A DNA stretch of 64,000 nt from Spirochaetota bacterium (GTDB lineage Bacteria > Spirochaetota > UBA4802 > UBA5550): contig JBHPHB010000001.1 in NCBI GenBank assembly GCA_042569985.1, positions 1,600-65,599 on the forward strand, in the 5' to 3' direction. Positions 9,111 through 63,749 of this stretch are shown piece by piece. How positions within the stretch are numbered: position 1 is the stretch's first letter; each line of letters opens with the position of its first letter. The notes under the pieces were generated by a model. The model was not told the DNA's origin. It did not search any database and was given only the letters and a program-made list of their open reading frames with translations. The translations under genes were made by a program, and so were the position numbers.

Positions 9111-9199
9111 AAAAATAATTAACCCGGCTTAATTTTGTGTATACCTGAATCCGATAATTAAATCATATTCATAAATAATGGGGAAGATATTATATTTAT

Positions 9200-9448: not shown

Positions 9449-9475
9449 TCTTTTTTAAAAGCGCTTATAAATAAT

Positions 9476-36216: not shown

Positions 36217-37851
36217 ATGAAAAAAAAAGATACCAGAATAATTATAGTGACCGGTGGTGTTTGTTCCTCCCTGGGGAAGGGCATTTCAATTGCTTCGCTG
36301 GGACTCCTCCTTGAAGGCCACGGATATAAAATATCAATTATTAAAATGGATCCATATATTAATATTGATCCAGGGACCATGAGTCCCTACCAGCATGGTG
36401 AAGTATATGTTACTGAGGACGGGGCTGAGACTGACCTTGACCTTGGGTATTACGAAAGATTTACAAATTCAAACCTTACCAGCAGAAATTCAGTATCTAC
36501 TGGTCAAATATATTATTCTGTTATTCTCAGGGAAAGAAAGGGCGATTATCTCGGCAGGACTGTGCAGGTGATACCCCACATAACTAATGAGATAAAAAAA
36601 AGAATTTATGATGTGGCCAATGATGAGGACCTGGATTTTGTTCTTGTAGAGATTGGCGGAACAGTGGGCGATATTGAATCGGTTCCTTTCCTTGAGGCCG
36701 TGAGGCAGATACGTCATGAGCTTGGCAGGGAAAGGGTTATGAATGTACACCTTACGTTAATACCGGTTATAACAGTTGCCGGTGAACAAAAAACCAAACC
36801 CACACAGCACTCTGTAAAGGAATTAATGGAGATTGGTATAATCCCCGATGTTCTTTTATGTAGAACGAGCCTTCCCCTGGCTGATGAATTAAAGAGTAAG
36901 ATCGCACTTTTTTGTAATGTTTCCGAAAAGAACGTCATTTCCGCGGAGGACATTAGCGGTTCAATATATGAAATTCCATATATGTTTCATAAAAATAATT
37001 ATGATAAAATTGTTCTTGAGCACTTCGGGCTCAAAGTTTCAAAATTAAAGCTTCCTGCCTGGGATAAGTTTCTTAAGGCATATCATAATCCCCTTAGAAA
37101 AGTAACAATTGCTGTTGTGGGGAAATATATCTCTCTTCAGGACTCCTACAGGTCCATTTATGAGGCCCTTTTTCACGGGGCCGTGGCTAACAGGGCGGAA
37201 CTTGAGATTGTTAGAATCGATTCTGAGGATATTGAAGGGATGACCCTGGCTAAGTTAAAAAGAAAATTTTCAAATGTTGACGGTGTCCTGGTGCCGGGGG
37301 GATTTGGAGTGCGGGGTATTGAAGGGAAAATTATGGCAATATCCTGTTTAAGAAAAAGCAAAATACCCTTTTTTGGAATCTGTCTCGGTTTGCATTGTGC
37401 TGTCATTGAGTTTGGCCGGAATGTATGCGGCCTTGAAAATGCAAATTCCACTGAATTTGAACCTGAAAATGAAAATCCTGTAATATCCCTCCTTGAAGAA
37501 CAGGAAATAATTGTAGATAAGGGGGGTACAATGAGGCTCGGTGCATTCTTGTGCAAATTTCAGGAGGGTAGTAAAATAAAAAAGATATATAATGTGGCTT
37601 CCGTAAAGGAGAGGCACAGGCATAGATTTGAGTTTACAATGAGGTATAAAGAATTATATGAGAAGAAGGGTATGAACTTTGGGGGGATTTATCCCACAAG
37701 TAATCTAGTTGAGACAATAGAGATTAAGGACCATCCCTGGTTTATAGCAACCCAGTATCATCCGGAATTCAAATCGAAACCTCATAAACCGCATCCCCTG
37801 TTCAGGGATTTTATTAGGGCATCAATTGAATATAGAGAGAAAAAGAAATAA
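36217..37851 (+). CDS. pyrG: CTP synthase
   Basis: N-terminus IIVTGGVCSSLGKG. C-terminal glutamine amidotransferase GICLGLHCAVIE. 544 aa. Confidence 0.95.
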   Translation: MKKKDTRIIIVTGGVCSSLGKGISIASLGLLLEGHGYKISIIKMDPYINIDPGTMSPYQHGEVYVTEDGAETDLDLGYYERFTNSNLTSRNSVSTGQIYYSVILRERKGDYLGRTVQVIPHITNEIKKRIYDVANDEDLDFVLVEIGGTVGDIESVPFLEAVRQIRHELGRERVMNVHLTLIPVITVAGEQKTKPTQHSVKELMEIGIIPDVLLCRTSLPLADELKSKIALFCNVSEKNVISAEDISGSIYEIPYMFHKNNYDKIVLEHFGLKVSKLKLPAWDKFLKAYHNPLRKVTIAVVGKYISLQDSYRSIYEALFHGAVANRAELEIVRIDSEDIEGMTLAKLKRKFSNVDGVLVPGGFGVRGIEGKIMAISCLRKSKIPFFGICLGLHCAVIEFGRNVCGLENANSTEFEPENENPVISLLEEQEIIVDKGGTMRLGAFLCKFQEGSKIKKIYNVASVKERHRHRFEFTMRYKELYEKKGMNFGGIYPTSNLVETIEIKDHPWFIATQYHPEFKSKPHKPHPLFRDFIRASIEYREKKK

Positions 37852-39137
37852 TGGAAGAAAATAATAGTAAAGACTATAATCTTGCCTACTTAGAAAGGCA
37901 AATGCATAATCTTACAAAGCTTGTGGGAATTAATAATATCATTAATTCCACGCTGGATATTAAAAAACTTCTTTCACTGATCATGGAAATAATTAAAGAT
38001 ATTATGGATGCCGAAGCAAGTACCCTGCTTTTATATGATGAGGAATCTGAAGCACTGGTTTTCAAGGTTGCATTGGGAGAAGCCGGGGAGGAACTCCAGG
38101 AGAAATACAGGGTTTCCCTGGGCCAGGGAATTGCAGGCTGGGTTGCACAAAACAGAAAACCGCTCAATGTCCTTGACGCATATACCGATGAGAGGTTTGA
38201 TCCAAATTTTGATAAAAAGACGGGCTTTAAAACCAAATCAATTCTCTGCACGCCACTGCTGTTTAAAGGCAAACTCCTTGGAGTAATACAGGCTATCAAT
38301 TCCATAACAAAACCGCATTTTGATGATGAAGATGTAAATCTTTTTAAAATTTTCAGTAATCAGGCGGCCCTTGCTGTCCAGAATGCCATGTTTTTCCAGA
38401 ATGCCCTGGAAGAAGAGAGGATTAAAATTGAATTGCAGTCGGCAAAATCAATTCATGAATCACTTGTCCCCATTTATGTAAATAAAATAAATAAGATCAA
38501 TATTGCGGCAAAATCTGTTTCGGCAAGAGAAGTGGGAGGTGAGTTTCATGGGGTGTACAAGATCAGCGATGACCATGTTGGTGTAGCTTTAGTGGATATA
38601 CATCAGAAAGGGCTTCCCGGGGGGCTTCAGGCATCAATAATGAGCGGGGCGTTGAGATCATTGGTATGGACAAAAGGTAAAAATCCTTCACACCTTATAA
38701 AAATACTAAACAGGATTATCTCCGATGATCTAAGTTCCATCAGCAATGTGTCTATCTTTTACGGTTTGGTCGACTGCAGTGAAAATACATTGAATTACAT
38801 TAAAGCCGGTGTTGTTTATCCCATTCTTGTGAGAAATAAAGTTGCCAGGTATTTCAGGTTTGACAGCAAATCTTTTGGCACCGAAAGTTCTGGAATAAAA
38901 AAGGTTAAGGTGAAATTACAAGCGGGGGATATGTTTGTAATAATTACTGACGGAATGCTTAATATTAAAAATAGAAATGGTGTGAAGCTTGGTTTAAAAG
39001 ATGTCATGGCCTGCCTTGAAGGTGATTTCAATAAGCCCGAAGAGGTAATAGAAGGGGTGATTGATTATACCGATAATTTTTATAATGGCCTGGAGAAGAG
39101 GGAAGATATCTCAATTGTTGTTTTTAAGGTAGACTGA
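37851..39137 (+). CDS. GAF domain plus PP2C-type (SpoIIE/RsbU family) serine phosphatase
   Basis: GAF-like N-terminal half. PP2C-like C-terminal half with GGEFHGVY...VALVDIHQKGLPGG...FVIITDGML. Start overlaps pyrG stop (taATGg). Confidence 0.7.
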   Translation: MEENNSKDYNLAYLERQMHNLTKLVGINNIINSTLDIKKLLSLIMEIIKDIMDAEASTLLLYDEESEALVFKVALGEAGEELQEKYRVSLGQGIAGWVAQNRKPLNVLDAYTDERFDPNFDKKTGFKTKSILCTPLLFKGKLLGVIQAINSITKPHFDDEDVNLFKIFSNQAALAVQNAMFFQNALEEERIKIELQSAKSIHESLVPIYVNKINKINIAAKSVSAREVGGEFHGVYKISDDHVGVALVDIHQKGLPGGLQASIMSGALRSLVWTKGKNPSHLIKILNRIISDDLSSISNVSIFYGLVDCSENTLNYIKAGVVYPILVRNKVARYFRFDSKSFGTESSGIKKVKVKLQAGDMFVIITDGMLNIKNRNGVKLGLKDVMACLEGDFNKPEEVIEGVIDYTDNFYNGLEKREDISIVVFKVD

Positions 39138-46332: not shown

Positions 46333-46719
46333 TTATTCAATTAAAAAGCTGAAGAAGTTTAATACTTCCGTTTCGGAGTGAAGAATCTTGATAAAGTTCT
46401 GCAGTTTGACAATTTTAAAAATATCTTTAATTTGAGACGGAACATCGAGAAAGGCAATTTCACCTTTATTGGCCCTTATTATTTTTGCTGTTTTTATAAA
46501 TGCGCCAATACCGGAACTGTCAATGTATTCCATTTCTTTCATGTCCACAATGATTTTTAATGCGCCTCCATTGATGAGAGTGTTTATGAAATGTATAATG
46601 TAATTTATATTACTCCCATCAACACCCTTTTTAAGGCATATTCTAAAAATAATATGATTGAAATTCAATGAGTCATCGGCAAGGGGATTGATTTTGATTA
46701 TATCACAGTGGACATCCAT
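46333..46719 (-). CDS. STAS-domain anti-sigma-factor antagonist (SpoIIAA/RsbV-like), paralog 4 of 4
   Basis: DMKEMEYIDSSGIGAFIKTAK. Conserved phosphorylatable Ser context DSSG. Confidence 0.75.
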   Translation of the reverse strand: MDVHCDIIKINPLADDSLNFNHIIFRICLKKGVDGSNINYIIHFINTLINGGALKIIVDMKEMEYIDSSGIGAFIKTAKIIRANKGEIAFLDVPSQIKDIFKIVKLQNFIKILHSETEVLNFFSFLIE

Positions 46720-46762
46720 TTATTAATCCTGTTGAAAATTATAAAATATATTTGGAACATTA

Positions 46763-47137
46763 TCATACATTAAGTTTAAGAAATTTTATCGCCTCTTCCT
46801 CTGATTCAAAGATTTGGATAAACCTTTGAAGGTTTACTGGCCTGAATATATTAAGAATGTTTTCGGGAACCCTGATTAATCCGATATCTCCTTTTTTTGT
46901 CCTTAACAATTTTGCGGAATTTATCAGCATGCCTATGCCCTGGCTGTCGATAAAATCTAAATTATTCATATCTATGATTATTTTATTGAGCCCGCCGTCT
47001 ATTAATGTTTTCAGGATTTTCCAGAGGTTATTTGTTTCATCTCTATCAATAACATCGGCTGCTTTTACTTTTAAGATGACGGAGTCATGTTCGATCTTTT
47101 CCTCATTCCTTGATGTTTGCAATATCGTGAAGTTCAT
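46763..47137 (-). CDS. STAS-domain anti-sigma-factor antagonist, paralog 3 of 4
   Basis: DMNNLDFIDSQGIGMLINSAK. RVPENILNIFRPVNLQRF. Confidence 0.75.
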   Translation of the reverse strand: MNFTILQTSRNEEKIEHDSVILKVKAADVIDRDETNNLWKILKTLIDGGLNKIIIDMNNLDFIDSQGIGMLINSAKLLRTKKGDIGLIRVPENILNIFRPVNLQRFIQIFESEEEAIKFLKLNV

Positions 47138-47179
47138 ATTAATTTATTATAAAATGAGAATATATAATCTCCCTTGTAT

Positions 47180-47560
47180 TTAATAATTATATAAAAATTC
47201 CAATGCTTCATTTTCTTTATCAAATATTTTTATAAAATTTTGAAGGTTAATAATCTTAAGTACATGTTTTATTTCATGGGGTACATTCATTATAACCAGC
47301 GTGCCGGAATTATCATTTAACTGCTTTGCTGTGTTTATTAGAATCCCAATGCCGGAACTGCTAATGTATTCTAAGTTTTCCATGTCTACAAGTATTTTTT
47401 TTGCCCCACCGCTAATTAATATATCCATGAACAATGACAGGTTATGGGAATTATCAATATTAATTTCATCGTACAACAGGGCCTTGAATATTATTTTGCT
47501 ATAATCAAAAATATCACTTTTTACCGTGGCCTCACATATTGTGTCAAAAGCTATTTTCAT
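47180..47560 (-). CDS. STAS-domain anti-sigma-factor antagonist, paralog 2 of 4
   Basis: DMENLEYISSSGIGILINTAK. NVPHEIKHVLKIINLQNF. Confidence 0.75.
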   Translation of the reverse strand: MKIAFDTICEATVKSDIFDYSKIIFKALLYDEINIDNSHNLSLFMDILISGGAKKILVDMENLEYISSSGIGILINTAKQLNDNSGTLVIMNVPHEIKHVLKIINLQNFIKIFDKENEALEFLYNY

Positions 47561-47594
47561 TAAAACCTCGTAATATTAGTATAAGTTATAATGG

Positions 47595-47966
47595 CTAAAA
47601 GTATAACGGTATATCCTCTTCCGATTTCAAAATCTTAACCAATTTCTGGAGATTAACTGTTTTAAAAATATTTTCAATATCTTCGGGAAGGTTAATTATG
47701 GCTGTATTCCCGCCTTCCTGATTCAGGGATTTTGCCGTATTGAATAGTACTGCTATTCCCGAACTGTCAATATATTCAAGGTCCATCATATCATATACAA
47801 TATATTTTATACCCCCTTTTATGGTGGTTGATAAGAAAATCCAGAGGTCCTTTGATGTATCAAAATCTAATACGCCTTTCAATTCGATTTTCATTACTAT
47901 TGTATCAAAATCAATCTCGTGGGTTAACCTGGGAGAGAGTTTTATGATCTTGCATATACTTTCCAT
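47595..47966 (-). CDS. STAS-domain anti-sigma-factor antagonist, paralog 1 of 4
   Basis: DMMDLEYIDSSGIAVLFNTAK. NLPEDIENIFKTVNLQKL. Confidence 0.75.
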   Translation of the reverse strand: MESICKIIKLSPRLTHEIDFDTIVMKIELKGVLDFDTSKDLWIFLSTTIKGGIKYIVYDMMDLEYIDSSGIAVLFNTAKSLNQEGGNTAIINLPEDIENIFKTVNLQKLVKILKSEEDIPLYF

Positions 47967-48076
47967 TATAATCCCTTTTTGAAAATATTAAGTAACATCC
48001 TGTTGATATACCACTTATAGTAATAGTAATTTAAATTCAATATAGATTTATCATTGAGCCAAAAAAAATATCATTT

Positions 48077-50836
48077 TTAAAAATTAAAATCCACAACGAC
48101 CATTGTAATGTCATCCTCCAATCCTTTTTTATTGTTAATTCCAGACCATTCTTTCACTGTATCTATGGATTTTTCCGTAAATTTTTCACAACTTAGATCG
48201 TGACTATTTAGAATTAAATTTTTAAAATTTTTATTACCGAACATTTCCCCCTTTTCATCCTTCGTTTCAAGTATCCCGTCTGTATACATTACAAAACGGT
48301 CCCCTTCTTCCAGGTCAAATTCATTAGTAGGAAAATTCTCTTCAGCCATCCAGCCAAAGGGCATGCCGTTATTTTCATTAAAAATTATTTCATTGTTCTT
48401 TTTTTTGTATAGAAGTGACGGCCAGTGTCCCGCGTTTGCCTGGTATAATTTTTTTTCTTCCAGGTCTATATATGCATAACATGCGGTGATAAATTGCCCT
48501 GATGTATGATTGAACATTGTCGCATTAATTTTAGACATGAGAACATCGGGCTTATCAGCATCTTCAAGAAAAAATGTGAATGTAACTCTCAACATGGCAC
48601 AAATAATTGCCGCCGGTATGCCGTGCCCGGATACATCGGCAATGAGAATGCCAACCTTTTTGTCGTCAATAACCTGGATGTCATAATAATCACCGCCAAG
48701 TTCAAACATTGGCTCATACTGAACTGATATTGCAAAATTTTTCCCCTGGGGAATATCCTTTAGTATTATACTGTCCTGGATCTCATGGGCTATATGAAGG
48801 TCCCTTTTCAGTGATGATAATTCATCGTGAATCTTAACTGAGTCTTTTAGCGATATTAAGTTGTTAACCCTGGCGATTAGCTCCATTTTGCTAACAGGTT
48901 TTGTAACATAATCATTAGCTCCGGCATCAATACCCGCGGCAATATCAGCGGGTTTGTTTTTCGCTGTGAGCATCAGTATGGGTAATTCATACTGAGAATA
49001 GGTTTTCCTCAATGTTGAACAGAGTTCATAACCTGACATTCTCGGGAGCATTACATCAAGGATGAGCAGGTTGGGCAATGCGTTTTCTTCAAATATTTGT
49101 AAAACCTCTGAGCCAGTTGTTGCCGTTATCACCTCATATCCCTCCAATGTGAGGTGATTCAATATAACCTTTATGTTGATGGGTTCGTCATCCACAACAA
49201 CGATCCTTTTCCCATTGAAGTTTTTAGGAGTATTGGCAACTTCAAAAATGGTTGAAGTATCCCTGTCTATTTTGTCAAGGTAATCTGTATTTATTTCAAG
49301 TGTGTTTTTAATATTTAAAACCAGTTGTTTTTCCTTTGATTCATTCAGGGAAAATGAAAAGCAGCTGCCCCTGCCGGGTGATGATTCAACCCATATTTCC
49401 CCTCCATGGAGCTCTACCAGTTTTTTTGCAATTGTAAGGCCCAGTCCTGTGCCTCCAAACTTTCTGGTTGCTGACCCGTCTACCTGCTCAAAGAGGTTGA
49501 ATACGCTTTTGATCTTTTCGGGGTGTATTCCCATTCCTGTATCTTTAACATTTATTATGATTTTATCATTAACGTGATCCTTTTGGGATGATATTTCAAT
49601 GCTGCCAGTTTCGGTAAATTTAACGGCATTGCTTAAAAGGTTCAGCATTATCTGCTGCAGCCTTATCTCATCTCCAAGAATGAATACTGATTCCGGATTT
49701 ATTTTATTCTTGATTTCGATGTTTTTGTTTTTCAGCAGGGGACTTATGATGGACATGATGTATTGTGTTATTGAATACATATCCACGGTTGACATGTTTA
49801 ATTTTATGTCATAATGCTTTAACTTAGAAAAATCCAGTATATCATTAATCAGTCCCGTTAGCTGTTTGCCGCTTTTTTTGATAAGTGATAAATTAAGTAT
49901 TGTCTCCACGTTAAGGCTTCCCGAAACACCCTCCAGGAGAGATTCGGTGAGCCCTATCATGCCGTATAGGGGAGTCCTGAATTCATGTGAAATGGTGGCA
50001 AGAAATTCATCCTTGAGGTTGTCAATCCTTCTGAGTTCCCTGTTGTTGTCCTGGAGCGCGCCAATTTCAAGTTTTATTACTTCCGCCAGGTGGTTAAATG
50101 TTCTGGCAAGCTTACCAAGTTCATCCTTTGAGCTGACGGGAATCCTGTAATTCAAGTCCCCGCTTCCGATTTCTTCCGCCCCGATTATTAACCTGTCAAT
50201 GGGTTTTGATATGAAACGGCTGAATACAAGGCCAATTATGATTGCAATAAGAATTGCTGAGAAAATTGATATGTATATAATATTCCTCAGTTTATTAATT
50301 GGTGAAAGTAGAATTGACTTGGAAAATATCAGCCTGCCCATGCAGTATGTTTTCCGCTGCAGGATTGCCCCCCGGGATATTATTTCATAGTAGGTATCAT
50401 CTATTTCGGGGACTTTAATTTCTCTAACCATATCGTTTTTAAAATTGCTGTCATATTTATGAGAAAGAATTAACTTCAGGGTGTCCGGGTTACTCTCAAT
50501 TATTTTATTTGTATAACTGGAAATTATTATACCATTGTACTTCTCATTAGGTGATATAAGGGTTGTATCAGCATAAAGCAGGCCCGTTTCTTTAAGAGGT
50601 TTAAGGATCGATAACATCTCTTTTGAGTCAATGCGTGTTGCCGTAATGCTTCCTCCGTTCATTATAAGAAGGTTTAAGGTGGACATTGCAAGAATTTTAC
50701 TGTTGATAATCCCCTGGTTTGTAAGAAGATCAATTTTTTCACTCTCCTGAATTTTGAGGATAAAAAACGAAATGGGCAGAGAGGCAATTAGTATTATTGA
50801 TATTAGCAGTAATATTAGTTTATATTTTATCTTCAT
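48077..50836 (-). CDS. Hybrid sensor histidine kinase - receiver - PP2C (SpoIIE/RsbU-type) phosphatase
   Basis: TM and periplasmic region, second TM, HAMP-like linker. H-box ATISHEFRTPL. HATPase GGTGLGLTIAKKLVELHGG. Receiver KRIVVVDDEP...LDVMLP...LMLTAK. PP2C GGDYYDI...ADVSGHGIPAA...MYTDGILE. Confidence 0.8.
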   Translation of the reverse strand: MKIKYKLILLLISIILIASLPISFFILKIQESEKIDLLTNQGIINSKILAMSTLNLLIMNGGSITATRIDSKEMLSILKPLKETGLLYADTTLISPNEKYNGIIISSYTNKIIESNPDTLKLILSHKYDSNFKNDMVREIKVPEIDDTYYEIISRGAILQRKTYCMGRLIFSKSILLSPINKLRNIIYISIFSAILIAIIIGLVFSRFISKPIDRLIIGAEEIGSGDLNYRIPVSSKDELGKLARTFNHLAEVIKLEIGALQDNNRELRRIDNLKDEFLATISHEFRTPLYGMIGLTESLLEGVSGSLNVETILNLSLIKKSGKQLTGLINDILDFSKLKHYDIKLNMSTVDMYSITQYIMSIISPLLKNKNIEIKNKINPESVFILGDEIRLQQIMLNLLSNAVKFTETGSIEISSQKDHVNDKIIINVKDTGMGIHPEKIKSVFNLFEQVDGSATRKFGGTGLGLTIAKKLVELHGGEIWVESSPGRGSCFSFSLNESKEKQLVLNIKNTLEINTDYLDKIDRDTSTIFEVANTPKNFNGKRIVVVDDEPINIKVILNHLTLEGYEVITATTGSEVLQIFEENALPNLLILDVMLPRMSGYELCSTLRKTYSQYELPILMLTAKNKPADIAAGIDAGANDYVTKPVSKMELIARVNNLISLKDSVKIHDELSSLKRDLHIAHEIQDSIILKDIPQGKNFAISVQYEPMFELGGDYYDIQVIDDKKVGILIADVSGHGIPAAIICAMLRVTFTFFLEDADKPDVLMSKINATMFNHTSGQFITACYAYIDLEEKKLYQANAGHWPSLLYKKKNNEIIFNENNGMPFGWMAEENFPTNEFDLEEGDRFVMYTDGILETKDEKGEMFGNKNFKNLILNSHDLSCEKFTEKSIDTVKEWSGINNKKGLEDDITMVVVDFNF

Positions 50837-50845
50837 AGAAGATAC

Positions 50846-51958
50846 CTATTCCAATTCACGCAGGGCGGTGAGCCGTTTTTTTGCCCGTGGTAAATATGCC
50901 CTGGCAATTTTATTTGCCGGGTCGATTATAAGAATACGTTTCATAATATTAATGCACTGTTCATATTTCTTTTTTTCGTAGGCCGAAATACCCTCTTTTT
51001 TTAAACCGGTGATTAATGATGTGAGTTTCTTTCTTAATTTTCTAAGCTTTTCTCTTGATGAGGCCATGTATTTGCCCGATTTTTCAAGAAGTACCATTGC
51101 AGAGAAATATCTTTTCTTTTTTATCTCCAGTAGAGCGCTATTATGGATTTTTTCATTCTTTTGTATAACGAGAAGATTCTTTTTTGCGTCAACATGGTTA
51201 TTGTCGATTGAGATCACTTTTTTGAAGTGTTGTTTCGCCAATTTTGTATTTCCTTCTTTAAATTCACCCATGCCAAGTTCATAGTATTTTTTTGATTCAT
51301 CTATTTTTTTTAACCTGGCTGAATCATCGAGTTTTTTCATTTTGATAAAACCCAGCTTTCTGCCCCTCCTGACATAGGCCCGGTAATTAAATGAAACGCC
51401 AATAAGAATATTTAAAGTATGGAATGGTTTGTCCGACATCCAGACTGCCGAATAGGAAAGGCCGATCCTTGTCCTCACACCACTGGCAATGGGTATAAAA
51501 AATCCACCATCAGCGCCGAGTCCCACTTTGAAGGAATGATCCTGCCTGTCGGTCTTCTCTGCATCTGCATACAGGTAATTACCTTTAAATGATATTCCAA
51601 TGTAGGGTTCTAAAAAGGGCAGCAGGGGATAGTAGGCTAAAATACCTATGCTGAATAATAATGAATGAAAGTAGGAATCATCACTAACACTGAATTTGTA
51701 TGGAGAATAGAATATATCGGCTTCAACCATGAGAAAATTATGAATGTATGGAATGCAATATATTCCCACATTTGTTGTTCCCATCAGTTCAGAATCATAA
51801 TGGCCGAATATTTTGGAGTATCCGCCTTTTAACCCGAGAATGTAATCGCTTTTCCTGGTGTTTTCATACTGGGAGAAACCGGGCACAGAGGAGAATAGGA
51901 GGATTATAATAATTGCAAAGGATAGTGCTGGCCAGTTTAATGTTTTTTTAGAATACAT
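50846..51958 (-). CDS. Secreted beta-rich N-domain plus TPR-like C-domain protein, hypothetical
   Basis: Signal peptide. N-terminal half has amphipathic beta pattern. C-terminal half helical repeats (AKQHFKKVISIDNNHVDAKKNL...). Confidence 0.4.
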   Translation of the reverse strand: MYSKKTLNWPALSFAIIIILLFSSVPGFSQYENTRKSDYILGLKGGYSKIFGHYDSELMGTTNVGIYCIPYIHNFLMVEADIFYSPYKFSVSDDSYFHSLLFSIGILAYYPLLPFLEPYIGISFKGNYLYADAEKTDRQDHSFKVGLGADGGFFIPIASGVRTRIGLSYSAVWMSDKPFHTLNILIGVSFNYRAYVRRGRKLGFIKMKKLDDSARLKKIDESKKYYELGMGEFKEGNTKLAKQHFKKVISIDNNHVDAKKNLLVIQKNEKIHNSALLEIKKKRYFSAMVLLEKSGKYMASSREKLRKLRKKLTSLITGLKKEGISAYEKKKYEQCINIMKRILIIDPANKIARAYLPRAKKRLTALRELE

Positions 51959-52434: not shown

Positions 52435-53400
52435 ATGAAAAAAATTCGTTTCTTTTCCATTATCTCCTGCATTTTGATTATGAGCCCTGTCATTGCCAAT
52501 GCAAAGATGAGAATAGCAATTATCGACCTGAAGCCGGACGGGGTTTCACAGAGAACAGCACGGACGACAACAAACATGATAAGAACTGAACTTATTAATA
52601 TGGGTAGGTTCACAGTTGTTGAAAGGTCACGCATGGATGCAATTCTAAAGGAGCAGGGATTCCAGAAAACCGGTTGTACAGATGCATCATGCGCCGTTGA
52701 AGTGGGTAAACTTATTTCGGCAAGGAAGATGCTTGTCGGTGATATAAGTAAGATGGGCAAGGCCATAATTATTTCTGTGAGGATTGTTGATGTTGAAAAA
52801 GGTGTTTCCGAATATGCTGCTACCCAGAAGGCTATTTCTCTGGATGTCGTTGATGAGGCAGTAAGAAAAATTACAAAGAAGCTTGCATACAGGATCAGTA
52901 AGAGCGGAAAGATTAAAGAAATAAAAGAAGTAGAAGATGAAAAAGACGAGCCCGTAGTTGTTTCAAAAACAGGTTACTATCTCAGGGGCATTGTCCCCGG
53001 GTGGGGGCAAATCTATTCGGGACATACCCTTAAAGGCTCCCTGGTGCTTGGAGGCTTTGTTGTCTCTGGAGGATTGATGGGATGGACAATGTATAATTAT
53101 TTCGATAAAAAGAAAAAATACGACGATGCATGGAACCTGTCAGAGAATGAATTCGACAGCCTTTATGATGATTACAAAACCGCTGAGATAATAAATTTGA
53201 CAATGTTGTCTTTAACTGTTGCAATCTATATTTACAACTGGATCGACCTTATCTTCTTTAACAATGTGGAATACGGCAAAACAATTGCCAATGAGGCACA
53301 GAAGAAAGACAGGTTTTTCTATTCACTCAATATATATGATGTTCAGAATGAGGACAGTATAGAGATGAGGATAGATTTAAATTTCGGTATGCGCTTTTAG
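52435..53400 (+). CDS. CsgG-like periplasmic domain protein with C-terminal TM region
   Basis: ATG at 52435 preferred (aaggag RBS). Signal peptide. CsgG-family-like block MRIAIIDLKP...IRTELINMGRFTVVERSRMDAILKEQ...VGKLISARKMLVGDI. C-terminal TM LVLGGFVVSGGLMGWTMY. Confidence 0.45.
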   Translation: MKKIRFFSIISCILIMSPVIANAKMRIAIIDLKPDGVSQRTARTTTNMIRTELINMGRFTVVERSRMDAILKEQGFQKTGCTDASCAVEVGKLISARKMLVGDISKMGKAIIISVRIVDVEKGVSEYAATQKAISLDVVDEAVRKITKKLAYRISKSGKIKEIKEVEDEKDEPVVVSKTGYYLRGIVPGWGQIYSGHTLKGSLVLGGFVVSGGLMGWTMYNYFDKKKKYDDAWNLSENEFDSLYDDYKTAEIINLTMLSLTVAIYIYNWIDLIFFNNVEYGKTIANEAQKKDRFFYSLNIYDVQNEDSIEMRIDLNFGMRF

Positions 53401-53444
53401 TGGATGAAGATTATTAAATGCATGCAGAAAAAAAGGAGGCAAAT

Positions 53445-54833
53445 ATGAAAAGCAATAATAAATATATAATATTTACAGTAATAATTTTATCGGTTGTTTT
53501 CCTTAGTACATTGGGATGCGGCCTAATAGCAGACAGGAATAATTATTCCGATCCCGGCAGCAGTAATTACTCATTTCAAAATCCACAGGAAATTGAATAT
53601 AATAATGACGGCAATGCAACGAATCCCAATGTGGCAATGGATTCAAACGGTAATGCAATCGCTTCATGGTGCCAGGAAGATATTGACGGCGATGCATATT
53701 TCTATGTCAACAGGTACACGCCTGCAAACGAATGGGAAGGCGTAACGGAAATTTCCTGGATTCACCCGTCATTGAGCCTTTACCCGCCATACATTGCATT
53801 TGATCCAATAGGAAATGCCGTCGTGGTGTGGAACCAGAACGAAAGTCCCACTGGGAATGCTCATGATGTATACTCTGTGAGGTATAATTATAATCTTGAT
53901 GATTGGGAAGGTTTGTTTATGCACGATACTCAAACCAACAATGCATACCCCGCGAAGGCAGAGTTTCTGCCTGACGGTGATATCTTTTTGATCTGGACAC
54001 AGTCAGACGATGCCTGTGCAACAAGTAGTGTCTGGTCCACCACATATAGTTCAACCGGTCAAAACTGGGGTCCTGTATATTTAAATGAAGTTGATAATAC
54101 CAGTTTGTACTCGTCCAGATCTAATATGGATATAAATCCAGCCGGAGACATAGCTGTGGTATGGCGCCAGGGGCTTCCGGACAGGGAAATTTACGGCAGG
54201 ATAAGAGATAGTAATACTACCTGGGGGGCTCCTGTAAAACTTTCGGTGGATTCAAATGTTACTCACTGGCCCCAGGTGGCAATGGACAATAACGGCTATG
54301 CAATTGCCGTATGGATTCAGTCCGATTCTCTTCCAAGTGATGGTTTGTGGTCATCATTATATCATGCCTTGGATGAGGAATGGAAACCCCCTGTTAAAAT
54401 TTCCAATCCATCAGCTATTGTTCCTTCTGGTGACCCGCCCAGGATTGCAATGAATCCGGACGGCATGGCAATAGTGGTATGGCTTGAAGAAGAGGCAACC
54501 TATGACCATGTATGGGCAAATTATTACAATGCGGGGTGGTCAGGCCCGGTTAGGGTTGAGCAGCCTTCAAATTATTATTCTGAAACTCCCGAAGTGGCAA
54601 TTAATAACACCGGTGTTGCTGCCGTTGTATGGTCTAAATGGGATGATACAAGCAGGAATATATGGATGAACTGGTATGTTTCTTCCGTTTTTGTAGGGGC
54701 TTATACTATTGATGATTCTGGGGAGTTTGATGCAGTTAAACCAAAGATTGCAATGGATCCAAGCGGTTTTACTATTACCGTGTGGCAGCAATGGGACGGC
54801 TTTGTAAACAGTACCTGGGCATACAAGGAGTAA
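53445..54833 (+). CDS. Lipoprotein with eight ~45-aa G-x-A-[IV]-[AV]-V-W-x-Q repeats (predicted beta-propeller-like)
   Basis: aaggagg RBS before ATG 53445. Lipobox LSTLGCG. Repeats GNAIASWCQ, GNAVVVWNQ, GDIFLIWTQ, GDIAVVWRQ, GYAIAVWIQ, GMAIVVWLE, GVAAVVWSK, GFTITVWQQ, each followed ~20 aa later by a W-x-x-P-V motif. Confidence 0.55.
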   Translation: MKSNNKYIIFTVIILSVVFLSTLGCGLIADRNNYSDPGSSNYSFQNPQEIEYNNDGNATNPNVAMDSNGNAIASWCQEDIDGDAYFYVNRYTPANEWEGVTEISWIHPSLSLYPPYIAFDPIGNAVVVWNQNESPTGNAHDVYSVRYNYNLDDWEGLFMHDTQTNNAYPAKAEFLPDGDIFLIWTQSDDACATSSVWSTTYSSTGQNWGPVYLNEVDNTSLYSSRSNMDINPAGDIAVVWRQGLPDREIYGRIRDSNTTWGAPVKLSVDSNVTHWPQVAMDNNGYAIAVWIQSDSLPSDGLWSSLYHALDEEWKPPVKISNPSAIVPSGDPPRIAMNPDGMAIVVWLEEEATYDHVWANYYNAGWSGPVRVEQPSNYYSETPEVAINNTGVAAVVWSKWDDTSRNIWMNWYVSSVFVGAYTIDDSGEFDAVKPKIAMDPSGFTITVWQQWDGFVNSTWAYKE

Positions 54834-54862
54834 AAAAATAGAATATTGTTTATGAAAATTTA

Positions 54863-54890
54863 GAAGGCTACCAAACGTTTGGCCGCCTTC
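54863..54890. terminator. Bidirectional terminator hairpin between convergent genes
   Basis: gaaggc-taccaaacgtttggcc-gccttc with nested 12-bp palindrome ccaaacgtttgg. Confidence 0.5.
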
Positions 54891-54897
54891 GTATATA

Positions 54898-55995
54898 TTA
54901 ATATACCATTCTTAAAATATAATTCTCTTCATCTGCCAGGACGGCTGCGGAATTTTTTGCGATGGTTAATGCAAATATAAAATCGGGGTTCCCCGAACCG
55001 AAGTCCAGTATGCTGGCGGGCAGCCTGGATAAATTTGTGACGAGACAGCCCTTTTCGGGGTCATACACTTCGAGCTCATTAAATCTTCCTGCCTCAATAA
55101 TACCTTCCAGGCTTTCCAGAAAGTCATAATAGCTTTTAGATGTAACTTCGGGCATGAACTTGCGAATTTTCACGGCAATTTCGTTGATATGCATCCCCTC
55201 AATTTCTTCAGTTTTAAATTCGGTCACATGCTTCATGATGCCGTTGCCGAAAAAAACAGGCCCGTATTCGCTGACTTTATTTCTTACATCAATGGGAATG
55301 GTGAGAAAAAAGTCTTCGCCCAGGGTTGCCTTTTCAACTTCAACTGATTTTTTCATCATCATGGCGGTGAGGATGTCATTGGTGGAAACGGTCTCTCCAA
55401 AATCTGCCTTGATTTTACGTATGTTGACATGCACCTCCTCTCTGGGTACATTTATATTCTCAATTAACAGGTTGCTGTTTCCCGGAATTGGCACAGTGTT
55501 ATTGTGATTATACTTAAAATCCTTTAACACTGTACGCTCATGTTTAGGTCTAAAGGTGATCTCTGAGCCCTGCATTTTTGAAGCAAGAGCGGACAGAAAA
55601 AAGAAATAACTATAGCCGTCCCCGGCCAGGTGGCTCAATTTCGGAATTATGGCAGTTCCGTTTTTAAACTGGATAACTGTTAAAAAAGAGAGCCTATTCA
55701 TATTGGCTGGATTTACATTATGATACTTTTTATAAATATCTAAATGCGCTTCATCATTATTAAAATCTTCATGAAGTATTATTTCGTTAAAACTTTCACT
55801 TTCGCTGTATTCATCAAAACTGATGATCCCCCCATCATATTTTCCGAACATGGGCCAGAAGAGGGAGGCCAGTTCTTTTAAGGCACCACGAATTTTTTCC
55901 GTATCCAGTTTTTCCCGGTAAAAAAGAATAAATTCGATGGGATAAATTCCGTTTGCAAAGAGTGTGTCGGCCTGTGAAATGTGTACTTTTTTCAT
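54898..55995 (-). CDS. HxxxDG acyltransferase / condensation-domain-superfamily protein, hypothetical
   Basis: SHLAGDGYSYFFFLSAL contains an HxxxDG motif as in CAT / NRPS condensation / WS-DGAT acyltransferases. Size 365 aa. Confidence 0.4.
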   Translation of the reverse strand: MKKVHISQADTLFANGIYPIEFILFYREKLDTEKIRGALKELASLFWPMFGKYDGGIISFDEYSESESFNEIILHEDFNNDEAHLDIYKKYHNVNPANMNRLSFLTVIQFKNGTAIIPKLSHLAGDGYSYFFFLSALASKMQGSEITFRPKHERTVLKDFKYNHNNTVPIPGNSNLLIENINVPREEVHVNIRKIKADFGETVSTNDILTAMMMKKSVEVEKATLGEDFFLTIPIDVRNKVSEYGPVFFGNGIMKHVTEFKTEEIEGMHINEIAVKIRKFMPEVTSKSYYDFLESLEGIIEAGRFNELEVYDPEKGCLVTNLSRLPASILDFGSGNPDFIFALTIAKNSAAVLADEENYILRMVY

Positions 55996-56127
55996 TTGTA
56001 TGTATTATAATAGGGAGACAGCCAAATGCTTGGCCGCCTCCTGACTTTCCTTCTTCCATATTTAATGTGTAGCCATATTTTTGAATGAAAATTAAAATGC
56101 AAGTTAAAAAAGGGTCAATTTAAAAGT

Positions 56128-56152
56128 GGAGGCGGATTGATTTGCCGCCTCC
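56128..56152 (-). terminator. Rho-independent terminator of FG-GAP gene
   Basis: ggaggcgg-attgatttg-ccgcctcc. 8-bp perfect stem immediately after the stop on the minus strand, followed by cttttaaatt. Confidence 0.5.
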
Positions 56153-56163
56153 ATATAATGGTT

Positions 56164-57609
56164 TTATTTTGATACTTCCAGTACCGGTACATCGTTATAC
56201 CTGTAGATTGCAACGGTTTTACCGTCGTATGATGAAACTACAATTTCATCAACACCATCATTATCAAAATCTTCTACAACAATAGCTGCCTGGCCAACAT
56301 CTTCATTGGCATCAAGAACTTTCGTTATAAAGCCGCCCGTTGAATTTTGTTCAAGAACAAAAATCCGTTTGTCCCCGTCACCTGATACAACAATGTCAAT
56401 GTCTCCGTCACCGTCAACATCTCCCCAGTGGAAAACGCCCGGTGCACCATGTTCTCCGCAAATCGCGGATGGCCCCGGGCTTTCTATGTCTTCTGATAGA
56501 ACCCGTTCGTTAATCCAGTGTGTTGTTTTGTCACCGGCGGGGATTTCAAATAGAATTACTGCTTCATGAGCTACACCCACACACTTCGATGAATCAGTAT
56601 GGTTTGTTCCGATGGCATATGTTTTGTTGTCTCCGTTAATGAGATTGGGGACTGCTGAAATCTGAATTGAGGGCCCATAGTCATTATCATTAATTGGATA
56701 TTTTGACCAGAGGGAGGTTAATGCATCTTGAGTTCCTGGATTTTCAAACCATACAAATGAAGCATTGACGTCAGTATCGTTATGATCCCAGACAAAGAAT
56801 TGAGGGCTAATGATATCAAGATCATTGTCGTTATCAACATCAAATAATTCAGTCAGCACACCACCGCCTATACCAATAACTATGGGTGTTTTGACAAAAC
56901 GGTCAGGAGAGTTATCTCCTTTGTATACGAGGACGTTGCTGTAGCCAAAGATTCTGCCGGAATTATCCTGATTTTCCGTAAAGTCATATGCTGTGTCAAA
57001 TCCAGTAACAAGTGCGCCAACAGTAACGATATCTGTAATATTGTCACCGTCAACATCTGACATGCTTAAGCTTTTGTAAAATAATGGGTTACTGTCATCA
57101 ATTGCTTTCATTGAAATATCATGTGCTATCCAGTTTCCTCCATCCTGCTCGTACCAGCTGATCCCCCATTTACCCTGTGATCCGAAAAGGACATCCTGGC
57201 AGAGGAAAAAACCTGATGGTACAATAATATCATTGTCACCGTCATTATCCACGTCATGGACTGCAACTCTATTTCCAATACAGATGTTTTCCTCAGTGCC
57301 GAATACTTTTTCCTTTCTCCAGTTTGAAATATCTTCAATATCAGTTCCCTTATTATAGTATATTATTACTTCACCTATAAATCCCTCATCGAAATCACCA
57401 TAAGTACCAACGACTAAATCCTTATTGCCGTCCTTATCAACATCATTTGAAATAACAAAAGAAGAGCCTGTTACTCCACAATCTATTAGGGTTCTTCCGG
57501 GAAGGCTTCTTTCGGAAGAGCATTTTCTGCTGTTGCCGCATGACGAAAATACTAAAATATTAACAAACATTAGTATTATTGGAAAAATCATTAATCTTGA
57601 AATCTTCAT
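56164..57609 (-). CDS. FG-GAP repeat (integrin-alpha-like beta-propeller) lipoprotein
   Basis: Lipobox VFSSCGNS. Reiterated FG-GAP calcium-binding-like motifs DVDKDGNKDLVV, DVDNDGDNDIIV, DVDGDNITDIV, DVDNDNDLDII, DVDGDGDIDIVV, DFDNDGVDEIVV. Confidence 0.65.
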   Translation of the reverse strand: MKISRLMIFPIILMFVNILVFSSCGNSRKCSSERSLPGRTLIDCGVTGSSFVISNDVDKDGNKDLVVGTYGDFDEGFIGEVIIYYNKGTDIEDISNWRKEKVFGTEENICIGNRVAVHDVDNDGDNDIIVPSGFFLCQDVLFGSQGKWGISWYEQDGGNWIAHDISMKAIDDSNPLFYKSLSMSDVDGDNITDIVTVGALVTGFDTAYDFTENQDNSGRIFGYSNVLVYKGDNSPDRFVKTPIVIGIGGGVLTELFDVDNDNDLDIISPQFFVWDHNDTDVNASFVWFENPGTQDALTSLWSKYPINDNDYGPSIQISAVPNLINGDNKTYAIGTNHTDSSKCVGVAHEAVILFEIPAGDKTTHWINERVLSEDIESPGPSAICGEHGAPGVFHWGDVDGDGDIDIVVSGDGDKRIFVLEQNSTGGFITKVLDANEDVGQAAIVVEDFDNDGVDEIVVSSYDGKTVAIYRYNDVPVLEVSK

Positions 57610-57972
57610 ATTACCCTCTTCATATTAAAATAGTATTATTCTTATTTTTTTATTTTTGGAAATTATTGCATAGTTGTGTTACGGATTTTATTTATATAGC
57701 GTTTGAAAATATTATTAAACATTAAAATTCTTAAATAAGATGCTATTCTGACAATAGTAAATCTGTCAAGTTTTATTGCCTTTTTTTCGTGATTTTCAAT
57801 ATAAAAAAGTGAATGTGATATGTTAAAGGTTTACAAACCTGTTTACTTATATGCTGAAAGGAAAATACATATTTTTGCATTTTGAGATACAGATTTATTA
57901 AAATATTCCGATTAAATAGAAAAGATATGAATTTTATAATTCAAAGAAAAAATTTACATTGGAGTTAATAAT

Positions 57973-58119
57973 ATGGAAAATAAAGAAGCCGCAATAAATG
58001 CAATTTTAAGTGCTGCCCGGTTTGATATGAACAAGGGTATGAATAAAAAAGATATTCTTAAATCTCTTTCCAGGTTAATTGACGGTGACATGTTTAATGA
58101 AGTAGTGAAAAGGTTCTAG
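57973..58119 (+). CDS. Small 48-aa ORF, hypothetical
   Basis: ATG preceded by ggag RBS (9 nt). Below the ORF-track size cutoff. Stop codon overlaps the stop of the convergent AraC-fusion gene. Confidence 0.25.
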   Translation: MENKEAAINAILSAARFDMNKGMNKKDILKSLSRLIDGDMFNEVVKRF

Positions 58120-59663
58120 GACTTTAGTTCCTTCCTGTAATCGGTGGGAGATTTTTTCATTACAATCTTAAAGAGCCTGTTGAATGTTGACAGGCAGTCA
58201 AAACCGGATGAAAGTGCAACATCGATAATTCTAATTTCACTGTCCCTGAGTTTTTCCACGGCATTGTTTATTCTAAGTTCATTGATGTAATCATTTATTT
58301 TTTTACCCGTATATTCCTTGAATTGACTGCTAAAATAGTTAGGATTCATTCCCACTGCTGATGCAAGGCCCTCCCGTGAGATATCAGACTTGTAGTTTTT
58401 CTGAATGAAATCTAAGATGACTTTGATTTTTTCTTCAGTTGAGTTGGTTATTGTTTTCTTAGAAACACCCTTTGCCTTTCTTAAGTTTTCATATAGGAGG
58501 CGTAGTTCAAAAATCCTGTTCTGAGAGTCCCTCATACCGAGTAAAGTTAATCCAATGATGAGTAGAGGGGAAAAGAAGGGAGTAATTATATAAGGGAATA
58601 TATCTCCCATTATTAAGAATGCAGTCTCAAGAGTCCCGCCAAAGGACATTAAATTTACCAGTATCAAAGTTGCATAAAATTTAAACCTGTCCGGTTTTAA
58701 TTTATTGAGGCTGTATATCATATAAGTCGCATAAAGCATAAAGAGTATTGTTACAACAAAGCCGATTATGGGGTTGATATAAAAAGTTTCCATGTATAAT
58801 TCTGCGAAAATAGTACTTCCCGTGCCAAAAATTAAAATTGGGAAAAGTATTCTGTTCTGTTCGTTGAGTTTAACATGGTAAAGGGATTGGATAATTAGAA
58901 CAAAAATAATACCCAGCAGGGGCCCTGAAATTGCCAGGAGCGACGGGACATAGTAAAATTTAACCAGTTTGTATGGTGAAAATATTAAAAAAATATAGTT
59001 GCAGTAGAATATCATCATGAGCATTGCATAAAGGAAAAATATCTGCTTTCTATCCATTAGAAATGCAATAAAGGTCCGTACTATCCCCAATAATAAGAGA
59101 AGTATAACGCTGAGGGGGATTATATTATAGATGAGGTTATGCCAGTTCGTGAGCCTGCGATGGTTTTCCCTTGTTTGAATTTTAACTCCATCAGGCAGGC
59201 CGCCGTTAAATCCCACCCTGAATACTCCAAGGTAAATATATATTTCATTTATTCCCTTCTTTAATGCACCCTGGGGTATCGTTAAATTCGCAGGGAGGTG
59301 AATATTTTCAGTTTCTCCCGGGCTCCTGTAACCAAGGAGTTTATCATTTAAATATACCCTGTATGTGTTGTATACCCTGCCAAATGATATGCCGTAATAT
59401 TTTTCGGGTTTATCAATTTCAATAGTTGCCTTTAACCAGGCATACTGGAACTCTCTTTTGGAGGGGTAGGGCAGTTTTATTTTTGACGTAATGTCAATTT
59501 GCTTCCAGTTGCTTTTTTTTTTGATTAACCCTAGGGACTTACTTTGTTTATATAGAATTTTCCACTCTTTAATGTGAAGAGTATCCATGTTATTATTAAA
59601 TGAATATGCCAGTGATGGAATTATCAGGAATATAATATATAATATGTGTTTCATTGAATTCAT
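58116..59663 (-). CDS. 7TMR-DISM (extracellular sensor domain plus 7TM) fused to AraC-type HTH DNA-binding domain
   Basis: Signal and ~170 aa extracellular domain. 7 hydrophobic helices. C-terminal AraC signature GLASAVGMNPNYFSSQFKEYTGKKINDYINELRINNAVEKL...LSSGFDCLSTFNRLFK. Confidence 0.6.
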   Translation of the reverse strand: MNSMKHILYIIFLIIPSLAYSFNNNMDTLHIKEWKILYKQSKSLGLIKKKSNWKQIDITSKIKLPYPSKREFQYAWLKATIEIDKPEKYYGISFGRVYNTYRVYLNDKLLGYRSPGETENIHLPANLTIPQGALKKGINEIYIYLGVFRVGFNGGLPDGVKIQTRENHRRLTNWHNLIYNIIPLSVILLLLLGIVRTFIAFLMDRKQIFFLYAMLMMIFYCNYIFLIFSPYKLVKFYYVPSLLAISGPLLGIIFVLIIQSLYHVKLNEQNRILFPILIFGTGSTIFAELYMETFYINPIIGFVVTILFMLYATYMIYSLNKLKPDRFKFYATLILVNLMSFGGTLETAFLIMGDIFPYIITPFFSPLLIIGLTLLGMRDSQNRIFELRLLYENLRKAKGVSKKTITNSTEEKIKVILDFIQKNYKSDISREGLASAVGMNPNYFSSQFKEYTGKKINDYINELRINNAVEKLRDSEIRIIDVALSSGFDCLSTFNRLFKIVMKKSPTDYRKELKS

Positions 59664-63341: not shown

Positions 63342-63749
63342 ATGAAAAGAGTTTATGTAGTATTTTGTATTGCCGTATTTTTTTTAAGCTATTGTTCTAC
63401 CTTTGTAGATAAAGAATTCAAGCCGGAAATAAAAAAACTTGAAAATGATTCATATATAGTAAAGAAACATGTCAGTATTGGCGGCTTAAGGCTTAGTAAA
63501 AACCAGAAGATTAAAATAATTGTCGTGGGCGGCGATGAATGGGTTAAGGTTTATGGATATGGTTATGATGAAAATGTACTTAAGGCGAAGAGAGTACTGA
63601 TTTTATACCTTTTTGAGAGTGACTTTAAGGATGATATTTTTAATTTAGTTACTTTTAAAGAAAAGCTTTTTCAGATTATTTCTAAAGAAGATGAAATAAA
63701 AAAATCTGGAAAGAAAAACAAAAAACGCAGGAAAAGACGAAAAAGATAA
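63342..63749 (+). CDS. Hypothetical lipoprotein with lysine-rich C-terminal tail
   Basis: Lipobox [10 protein letters not shown]-terminal [16 protein letters not shown]. Confidence 0.45.

Follow-up and report, generated by a model that had tools for sequence, protein, structure and literature searches.

The stretch of DNA considered here, referred to as the window, comprises 64,000 nucleotides of contig JBHPHB010000001.1 from a Spirochaetota bacterium (assembly GCA_042569985.1), and the region of interest holds five consecutive genes, g1 to g5, between positions 52,435 and 59,663. We consider it fairly probable that the region consists, mosaic-like, of independent units, among which g1 and g2 form the one conserved functional unit, a two-partner-like cassette whose adaptor, the g1 protein, would bind a short tag located directly past the lipid-modified cysteine of the g2 lipoprotein. 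Sequence comparison across many loci indicates that g1 and g2 are a conserved adaptor-plus-lipoprotein cassette, while g3, g4, and g5 appear to be its independent neighbours. The adaptor-plus-tag cassette was not found in NCBIfam, Pfam, or the searchable literature, and literature searches on DUF5683, on CsgG in Leptospira, and on 7TMR-DISM in combination with AraC returned nothing relevant. Although the individual folds are already known, this spirochaete gene pair is apparently undescribed.

The pairing of the two genes emerges from scans of genomes and metagenomes with an alignment of eight g1 sequences, which recovered 62 loci with near full-length matches. All loci with a named source come from metagenome-assembled genomes (MAGs) of Spirochaetota/Leptospirales, and three MAGs gave 3–4 g1 paralogues each. 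Using a strict regular expression for the tag, a tagged open reading frame (ORF) was found on the same strand within 1.2 kb downstream of the g1 homologue in 36 of the 58 assessable loci, i.e., those with at least 200 nt of sequence downstream of the homologue. Most of the tagged ORFs begin 50–180 nt past the g1 homologue. The background amounts to 8 matches in 927 kb, or about 0.011 per equivalent interval, and several of these 8 are extra tandem cargos. Variant tags recognised by eye add 12 loci, bringing the count to 48/58, and when the g1 homologues are collapsed by identity, a tagged ORF is present in 30 of 41 clusters at 90% and in 24 of 34 at 70%.

Nearly all genes directly 3' of the g1 homologues encode a lipoprotein signal followed by the tag (loci with tagged cargos near the homologue are L008–L032 and L076–L130), and the passengers that come after it belong to mutually unrelated families, namely FG-GAP, NHL, SBBP, LRR_5 (with Flg_new), DUF1565, Lcl_C, and BNR, to which are added HYDIN-type Ig/DUF1573/CARDB, fn3, and small proteins without a Pfam family. 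Some loci have two to three tandem tagged cargo paralogues, of NHL or LRR_5 type, around a single g1-type gene, with the Cys codons at 1017, 4909, and 9023 in L013, at 9022 and 10285 in L021, and at about 3098 and 4356 in L112; the ratio of adaptor to cargo is therefore not always one to one.

The consensus of the tag, directly past the lipobox cysteine, is C-x3-8-R-[DN]-N-P-N-D-P-K-S-x-N-Y. In g2 it reads C34-GLIAD-RNNYSDPGSSNY, i.e., C34-GLIAD-R40-N-N-Y-S-D-P-G-S-S-N-Y51, with residue numbers of g2 counted from the ORF start at 53418. Among 24 distinct cargos, the arginine at –1 is present in 23, the proline at +2 and the asparagine at +3 in 16 each, the proline at +5 in 18, and the tyrosine at +10 in 13. 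None of these five positions was imposed by the regular expression, which fixed N+1 and D+4; its alternation before N+1 was picked after examples had been seen. The tag region of g2 (residues 35–49) is predicted by AlphaFold2 to be disordered, with a predicted local distance difference test score (pLDDT) below 50.

The synonymous codons for the Arg and Pro residues of the tag vary freely among the loci, which argues for selection on the tag peptide and not on a DNA site, and on this ground a DNA-level recombination or cassette site was ruled out. Inheritance together with the propeller family of g2 was likewise ruled out, since none of the other 119 g2-family proteins among the matches listed, which come from other lineages, carries the tag. 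Nor was it seen in 120 proteins of the g4 family or in the non-Spirochaetota loci examined, and no NCBIfam model covers it. Lipoproteins at large do not share the tag: these same loci include untagged ones, and so does the window, with g4 and an ORF at 63342–63749. In the sampled data, it was found solely beside g1-type genes.

The g1 protein consists of a signal peptide, an α/β domain (residues 25–155), a disordered linker (158–176), a helical hairpin (198–275), and a C-terminal β-hairpin. The AlphaFold2 model, built with 33 homologues, has a pLDDT of 81.7, with lower confidence for the C-terminal β-hairpin. In Foldseek searches, the best PDB match for the N-terminal domain is the C-terminal domain of LpoB, with a TM-score of 0.70 and a root-mean-square deviation (rmsd) of 2.1–2.3 Å, followed by the N-domain of TolB, GNA1162, PelC, and FlgT, and weakly by CsgG; a PDB sequence search with the g1 profile gave nothing. 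In Pfam, the LpoB family (PF13036) is matched at 36 bits (cutoff 22.3), and the NCBIfam LpoB equivalog TIGR02722 at 33.6 bits, far under its cutoff of 110.55. As judged from sequence profiles and the predicted model, g1 is thereby assigned to the LpoB/TolB-N/PelC/CsgG fold class, and is probably not an LpoB orthologue.

The helical hairpin of g1 spans both hydrophobic segments, bears the motif GYYLRGIVPGWGQIY, and is of the DUF5683 type (PF18935), for which the match at residues 197–263 of the 332-residue ORF is marginal (29.1 bits versus a cutoff of 26.7). The family of g1 is large: when 1.84 billion representative proteins were searched with phmmer, 16,218 clusters matched at E≤1e-3, of which 297 reached E≤1e-30, and many of the members are full-length proteins of 300–330 residues with 35–50% identity. 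Family alignments show that the amphipathic C-terminal β-hairpin ends in an invariant Phe. The last strand, IEMRIDLNFGMRF (53319–53400), alternates hydrophobic and polar residues up to this Phe and resembles an outer-membrane β-signal, which is odd for a protein anchored mainly by a helical hairpin. The periplasmic domain also contains two cysteines, Cys81 and Cys86 (52675–52692), in a TGCTDxxCAV motif; both are invariant in close homologues, both are lost together in 4 of 33 family members, and in none is one lost alone, a pattern that a disulfide pair would show.

In g2, the signal peptide and lipobox (STLG-C34) are followed by the tag and then by eight repeats with a spacing of 50–56 residues, starting near residues 69, 123, 178, 234, 284, 340, 390, and 441. 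The family consensus likewise has eight repeats, of the form PQVAxDxxGNAIAVWxQ...W. The AlphaFold2 model, built with 62 homologues, is all-β with 29 strands (pLDDT 87.6, predicted TM-score 0.85), and its top Foldseek matches are propellers at probability 1.00, comprising the propeller lectins PLL, PHL, and CV39L, as well as CylK and sialidases. With TMq at most 0.56, the propeller has no close solved relative. Model and repeats together indicate that g2 is a β-propeller, the figure of eight blades being derived from the sequence repeats. No Pfam family was matched by g2, and the NCBIfam model NF053835 (PDIAV-motif lipoprotein) scores 42.9 bits against a cutoff of 90, over residues 324–420 only, which points to a related repeat type and not to membership. 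The ATG at 53445 is likely to be the true start of g2, because an AAGGAGG sequence sits 5 nt before it and the NCBI gene model of a protein identical to g2 (P0121) has 462 residues, matching this start.

A mechanism can be proposed in which g1 is exported by means of a cleavable signal peptide and presents an LpoB/TolB-N-like protein-binding domain in the periplasm, while being held in a membrane by the C-terminal helical hairpin. The g2 protein, made from its own Shine-Dalgarno sequence with a start 44 nt past the g1 stop codon, would be a lipoprotein in which the tag sits in a flexible tether that precedes a variable passenger. By binding this tag, the periplasmic domain of g1 would then determine where its cognate lipoprotein resides in the envelope, the likeliest outcome being either a hand-over for surface display or stable anchoring. 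Extended to the family, g1-type adaptors and the R-[DN]-N-P-N-D-P tag could represent a spirochaete-specific, dedicated pathway for lipoprotein localisation or secretion, where each paralogue serves its own adjacent, often adhesin-type cargo. We put this forward tentatively, as a possible reading of the cassette.

Several points weigh against this proposal. The helical hairpin argues for the inner membrane, and anchoring or retention would fit better than translocation across the outer membrane. One adaptor per cargo is unusual for a catalytic sorting factor, and this ratio, in combination with the helical anchor, may agree equally well with a stoichiometric anchoring complex and with a role in export. 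The tag of g2 itself is degenerate, with NY in place of NP and Ser in place of Asn. Nine of the 41 non-redundant loci are without a tagged downstream ORF; several of these are short of downstream sequence, yet L026, L029, L093, and L106 have room downstream and still no tagged ORF. In L026, a tagged LVIVD propeller gene is located just upstream of the g1 homologue. Some circularity also remains in the tag definition because of the two fixed positions and the post hoc alternation. With respect to the mosaic character of the region, a looser functional neighbourhood that includes the FG-GAP lipoprotein g4 and the membrane regulator g5 is conceivable, because FG-GAP proteins are cargo elsewhere and 7TM-LuxR regulators flank g1 homologues.

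An alternative that we consider unlikely is that the tag is a processing site, where cleavage, either autocatalytic or by a protease, separates the passenger from the lipid anchor, and g1 serves as the platform for this release or as its regulator. Autocleavage at Asn-Pro is known from the NPTH motifs of FlhB and YscU, and the most conserved dipeptides of the tag are N-P and D-P, which are labile bonds and are here placed in a disordered tether right past the lipid-modified cysteine. However, neither a catalytic residue nor a protease was identified in g1 with Pfam, NCBIfam, or Foldseek, the conserved Arg and Tyr that flank the tag look more like parts of a recognition epitope, and the Asn-Pro bond is not present in the tag of the window, which has NY at this position.

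It is decidedly unlikely that the two proteins instead constitute a split TolB-like tether, in which the TolB-N-like domain of g1 and the propeller of g2 join the membrane to the peptidoglycan or the outer membrane, and thus serve a structural purpose and not sorting. TolB itself is built from an N-domain and a propeller, its N-domain is among the best structural matches of g1, and many of the cargos are propellers. Furthermore, locus L028 encodes a 616-residue protein (7131–8981) with a g1-type CsgG/TolB_N domain at residues 303–408, and the next gene (9043–9924) encodes an untagged PD40 (TolB-type) propeller lipoprotein, a pair that by its domain content looks like a split TolB. The reading is nevertheless disfavoured because many cargos are not propellers, but LRR_5 proteins, DUF1565 β-helices, Lcl_C, Ig-like, or fn3 proteins, or small proteins, and what the cargos have in common is the tag and not the passenger fold. 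The scores of g1 point in the same direction, with 22.1 bits for TolB_N, under the cutoff of 22.4, and 18.4 bits for the NCBIfam TolB model TIGR02800, which has a cutoff of 343. No PD40 repeats are present in g1, and the propeller is encoded by a separate gene and belongs to a different repeat family.

An earlier note on this DNA had described g1 as a CsgG-like periplasmic protein with a membrane tail, which is right at the level of the fold class. The Pfam CsgG family (PF03783) is matched at 39.2 bits (cutoff 20.8), and the protein carries both a signal peptide and a hydrophobic hairpin at its C-terminus. That g1 should be a CsgG-type outer-membrane secretion channel of the curli or HfaB kind, secreting g2, is on the other hand very improbable. 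CsgG and HfaB do export operon-encoded partners, CsgG chains are found among the Foldseek matches, and the amphipathic β-hairpin with its terminal Phe counts in favour of such a channel. The Pfam match, however, covers profile positions 33–100 of 210 only, and therefore leaves the transmembrane β-hairpin region outside, and the CsgG chains give TM-scores of 0.28–0.47 and rmsd values of 6–14 Å, a poorer fit than that of LpoB/TolB-N (TM-score 0.70, about 2.2 Å). A conserved cysteine in the signal region, as in a lipobox, is absent among the 33 g1-family members, whose signals end in ...ANA/K, and genes similar to csgE and csgF are also absent. The partial Pfam match, the lack of a lipobox, and the helical nature of the membrane element all argue against a CsgG channel identity for g1.

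The five genes had also been read as a single, locally regulated surface structure or secretion/acylation system, which is not supported. Their distribution over two strands and the intergenic gaps imply at least three transcription units, with 17–44 bp between g1 and g2, 64 bp between the convergent g2 and g3, 168 bp between g3 and g4, and 506 bp between g4 and g5, the latter being placed upstream of g4. The synteny comparison proposed in the earlier note, with unlinked genes in relatives as evidence against a system, was run, and the genes turned out to be largely unlinked. Three contexts of g3 homologues from KSB1/Calditrichota (L001, L003, and L004; 50–54% identity) differ from one another and from the window, and contain no relatives of g1, g2, g4, or g5. 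Two contexts of g4 homologues (the nearest at 44% identity, the other at 37%) have no neighbours in common with the window, and the nearest g2-family protein (30% identity, Geobacteraceae) has an unrelated context, adjoining fts/mur cell-division genes. When all proteins of the window were compared by tblastn with the 62 full-length g1-homologue loci (41 non-redundant), no homologues of g2, g3, the gene upstream of g1 (up1), or the N-terminal part of g5 were detected. Because these contexts and the g1 loci share no such neighbours, a five-gene system is left without support.

A system in which g5 senses and activates, g3 acylates, and g1 exports both g2 and g4 is therefore highly improbable: although the genes lie adjacent within 7.2 kb and in four cases encode exported or membrane proteins, FG-GAP proteins serve as cargo of g1 homologues in L014, L022, and L027, membrane-anchored helix-turn-helix (HTH) regulators adjoin g1 homologues in about five independent loci, and the closest g4 homologue adjoins a 7TMR-DISM sensor, the convergent two-strand layout with gaps of 168 and 506 bp, the unrelated homologue contexts (three for g3, two for g4, and one for g2), the absence of relatives of g3, up1, and the g5 N-terminal part from every g1-homologue locus examined, the untagged g4, and the lack of homology between the transmembrane (TM) region of g5 and the 7TM-LuxR regulators all stand against it. 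The description of five consecutive exported or membrane proteins thus holds for four of them, with g3 having neither a signal peptide nor a TM segment, and the absence of a characterised counterpart is true of the g1–g2 pair only. An operon-level annotation of the five genes as a "system" should not be passed on. All five ORFs were confirmed at the coordinates reported in the earlier note, including the g1 start at 52435, which is backed by the family alignment. The features are listed in Table 1.

Table 1. Positions of the genes and sequence elements of the g1–g5 region, numbered as in the window.
Feature	Position	Strand	Basis or remark
g1 (adaptor protein)	52402/52435-53400	+	332-aa ORF; 321 aa from M12
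g2 (cargo lipoprotein)	53418/53445-54833	+	ORF; likely start by Shine-Dalgarno and gene model
g3 (BAHD-type acyltransferase; apparent independent neighbour)	54898-55995	-	ORF and Pfam
g4 (FG-GAP/VCBS lipoprotein, untagged; apparent independent neighbour)	56164-57609	-	ORF and Pfam
g5 (membrane-embedded AraC-type one-component regulator)	58116-59663	-	ORF, Pfam, and hydropathy
Shine-Dalgarno AAGGAGG of g2	53433..53439	+	Sequence read; 5 nt before ATG 53445
Post-lipobox tag of g2	53517..53570	+	Motif alignment across cargos
Weak GC-rich hairpin, g2/g3 convergent gap	54863..54890	unassigned (.)	RNA fold

The individual assignments made for the genes fared better than the system as a whole. The eight-repeat, propeller-like lipoprotein recognised in g2 agrees with the lipobox, repeats, and model given above, and g3 was correctly seen as a cytoplasmic HxxxDG acyltransferase. 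The match to PF02458 reaches 48.7 bits (cutoff 22.7); the sequence has the motifs HLAGDG (residue 122) and DFGSG (residue 331), and H122, D126, F332, G333, and G335 are invariant across 41 sequences. A PDB sequence search with g3 alone gave nothing, whereas with the family profile, plant hydroxycinnamoyl-CoA transferases, which are solved BAHD enzymes, were matched over almost the entire length (E 2e-10). By motif and profile, g3 is a cytoplasmic BAHD-type acyltransferase with a predicted dependence on acyl-CoA. The HxxxD and DFGWG-type motifs, the Pfam score, and the extended alignment are shared with plant-type BAHD enzymes, but g3 is bacterial, has 365 residues compared with about 430–450, and is not linked to the g1–g2 cassette. 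There are 451 homologues, the nearest (beyond an identical record) at about 50–54% identity; most are metagenome proteins, and the few that are named come from KSB1/Calditrichota. In one KSB1 genome (L001:1–3226), a cluster of FlgT_N-like, TPR, and LPP20 lipoprotein genes, kin of the g1 fold class, is located about 5 kb upstream of the g3 homologue, which is probably a matter of chance.

For g4, the assignment as an FG-GAP, calcium-type propeller lipoprotein is borne out by Pfam matches over the cutoffs to FG-GAP_3 and FG-GAP (PF13517 and PF01839; 67.6 and 38.6 bits) and by six DxDxDxxxD calcium-type loops, and its N-terminus is without the tag. A PDB sequence search returned cadherin matches only, which were rejected as spurious. 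The closest g4 homologue (44% identity; L005:2500–6674) is directly downstream of genes for a TetR protein and a 7TMR-DISMED2/7TMR-DISM_7TM/SpoIIE sensor phosphatase. This arrangement is a faint echo of g5–g4, with a different output domain, and g5 may control g4.

The earlier description of g5 as a 7TM–AraC fusion stands as far as the AraC domain and the hydrophobic segments are concerned, while its 7TMR-DISM label does not. The C-terminal part (residues 421–511) matches HTH_18 and HTH_AraC over the cutoffs, at 70.3 and 49.6 bits, as expected for an AraC/XylS double HTH, and hydropathy suggests a signal peptide, an ecto-domain of about 150 residues, and 6–7 hydrophobic or TM segments ahead of it. 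Genuine 7TMR-DISM receptors have a comparable layout of signal peptide, extracytoplasmic domain, about seven TM segments, and cytoplasmic output domain. In contrast to these, the N-terminal 400 residues of g5 matched neither PF07695 nor PF07696 at a threshold as lax as E≤10, and BLASTP gave no significant similarity to the genuine 7TMR-DISM protein of L005; the output domain of g5 is an AraC HTH. The label was therefore rejected at the sequence level, although the topology is compatible with it. Membrane regulators that combine HisKA_7TM with a LuxR/GerE HTH directly adjoin g1-type cassettes in about five independent loci (L022:2430–3659, L017:3298–4560, L015:105–1556, L025:6422–7750 on the minus strand, and L116:650–1834). 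Their layout is analogous to that of g5, but homology to its TM region was rejected, with an hhalign probability of 0.2.

The hairpin in the g2/g3 gap has a folding energy of –13.5 kcal/mol and a z-score of just –1.46, and may, on this weak evidence, be a bidirectional terminator. Scans for promoters and terminators were uninformative in the AT-rich DNA: promoter-like sites numbered 52 where 31 were expected, and those resembling terminators were about as frequent as chance predicts. The genes around the locus are ordinary chromosomal ones, encoding Mfd, ComEC, CTP synthase, ThiC, ThiD2-ThiE, a LolA-like protein, and a NUDIX-family protein that is probably Idi; the base composition of the window has no island signature, and no paralogues of g1–g5 are present elsewhere in it. 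The gene for the LolA-like lipoprotein-sorting protein (PF17131; 44571–45344) is found about 7 kb upstream of g1 and that for a GAF-PP2C(SpoIIE) phosphatase (37851–39137) further upstream, neither with an evident link to the locus. Divergent from g1 is an operon on the minus strand (46333–51958) that encodes an outer-membrane-barrel-like/TPR protein (50846–51958), a hybrid protein with HAMP, histidine kinase, receiver, and PP2C(SpoIIE) parts (48077–50836), and four tandem paralogues of about 125 residues (46333–47966), read by sequence as putative STAS-type anti-sigma-factor antagonists. Its domain composition resembles that of an expanded partner-switching module. Many g1 homologues, too, have genes for histidine kinases and receivers close by, but such genes are common.

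If a dedicated localisation or secretion pathway is the correct reading, the cassette would be a functional counterpart of Slam, two-partner secretion, and the lipoprotein export signal (LES). It would then count among the candidates for the further translocation systems of surface lipoproteins that, according to a review, still await discovery in phyla lacking Slam (PMC7857515). The cassette may also bear on how lipoproteins are placed in the spirochaete envelope, which touches on the question of how spirochaetes and other non-proteobacterial diderms select the lipoproteins that go to the surface. The combination of a short, transferable tag and a dedicated adjacent adaptor offers a directly testable handle, and the tag provides a sequence rule by which a class of envelope or surface proteins can be predicted in uncultured Leptospirales-like bacteria. 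This class takes in families whose Leptospira members carry adhesin or surface-protein annotations, namely Lsa25/Lcl_C and LIC10774/DUF1565.

The periplasmic domain of g1 has the same α/β fold as the members of the LpoB/TolB-N/PelC/CsgG superfamily, which are protein-binding or ring-forming modules of the envelope. In NCBIfam, g1 scores under the cutoffs for LpoB and TolB; it is not a lipoprotein, and it differs from the superfamily in being anchored by a C-terminal helical hairpin of the DUF5683 type, with neither the transmembrane hairpins of CsgG nor a PD40 fusion.

In two-partner secretion (TpsB/TpsA) and in Slam systems, as for g1 and g2, the gene for the partner adjoins that for the substrate, and variable substrate passengers have a conserved N-terminal recognition element in common. 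TpsA cargos carry N-terminal NPNL and NPNGI motifs. The likeness to TpsB and Slam is one of operon logic only, as neither g1 nor up1 contains an Omp85/POTRA or DUF560 (Slam/TpsB barrel) domain according to Pfam and NCBIfam, and g1 instead combines a small LpoB/TolB-N-like domain with a helical hairpin. Moreover, the TPS domain is a folded unit of about 250 residues, as compared with about 12 residues for the tag in the lipoprotein tether. Slam genes are often adjacent to the genes of their substrate lipoproteins, and Slam has been reported predominantly from Proteobacteria (PMC7857515), whereas the g1–g2 cassette is seen in Spirochaetota.

A parallel in position is the LES of Bacteroidetes, which directly follows the lipidated cysteine and determines whether a lipoprotein is surface exposed (PMC5080379). 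Like the tag of the g2-type cargos, it is a short, acidic, and position-dependent motif. The LES, however, has the sequence K-(D/E)2 or Q-A-(D/E)2 and is used across the genome, and the paper describes no neighbouring gene for a dedicated partner (PMC5080379), whereas the R-[DN]-N-P-N-D-P-K-S-x-N-Y tag, with a putative role in export, starts 5–10 residues past the cysteine and goes together with an adaptor gene next door.

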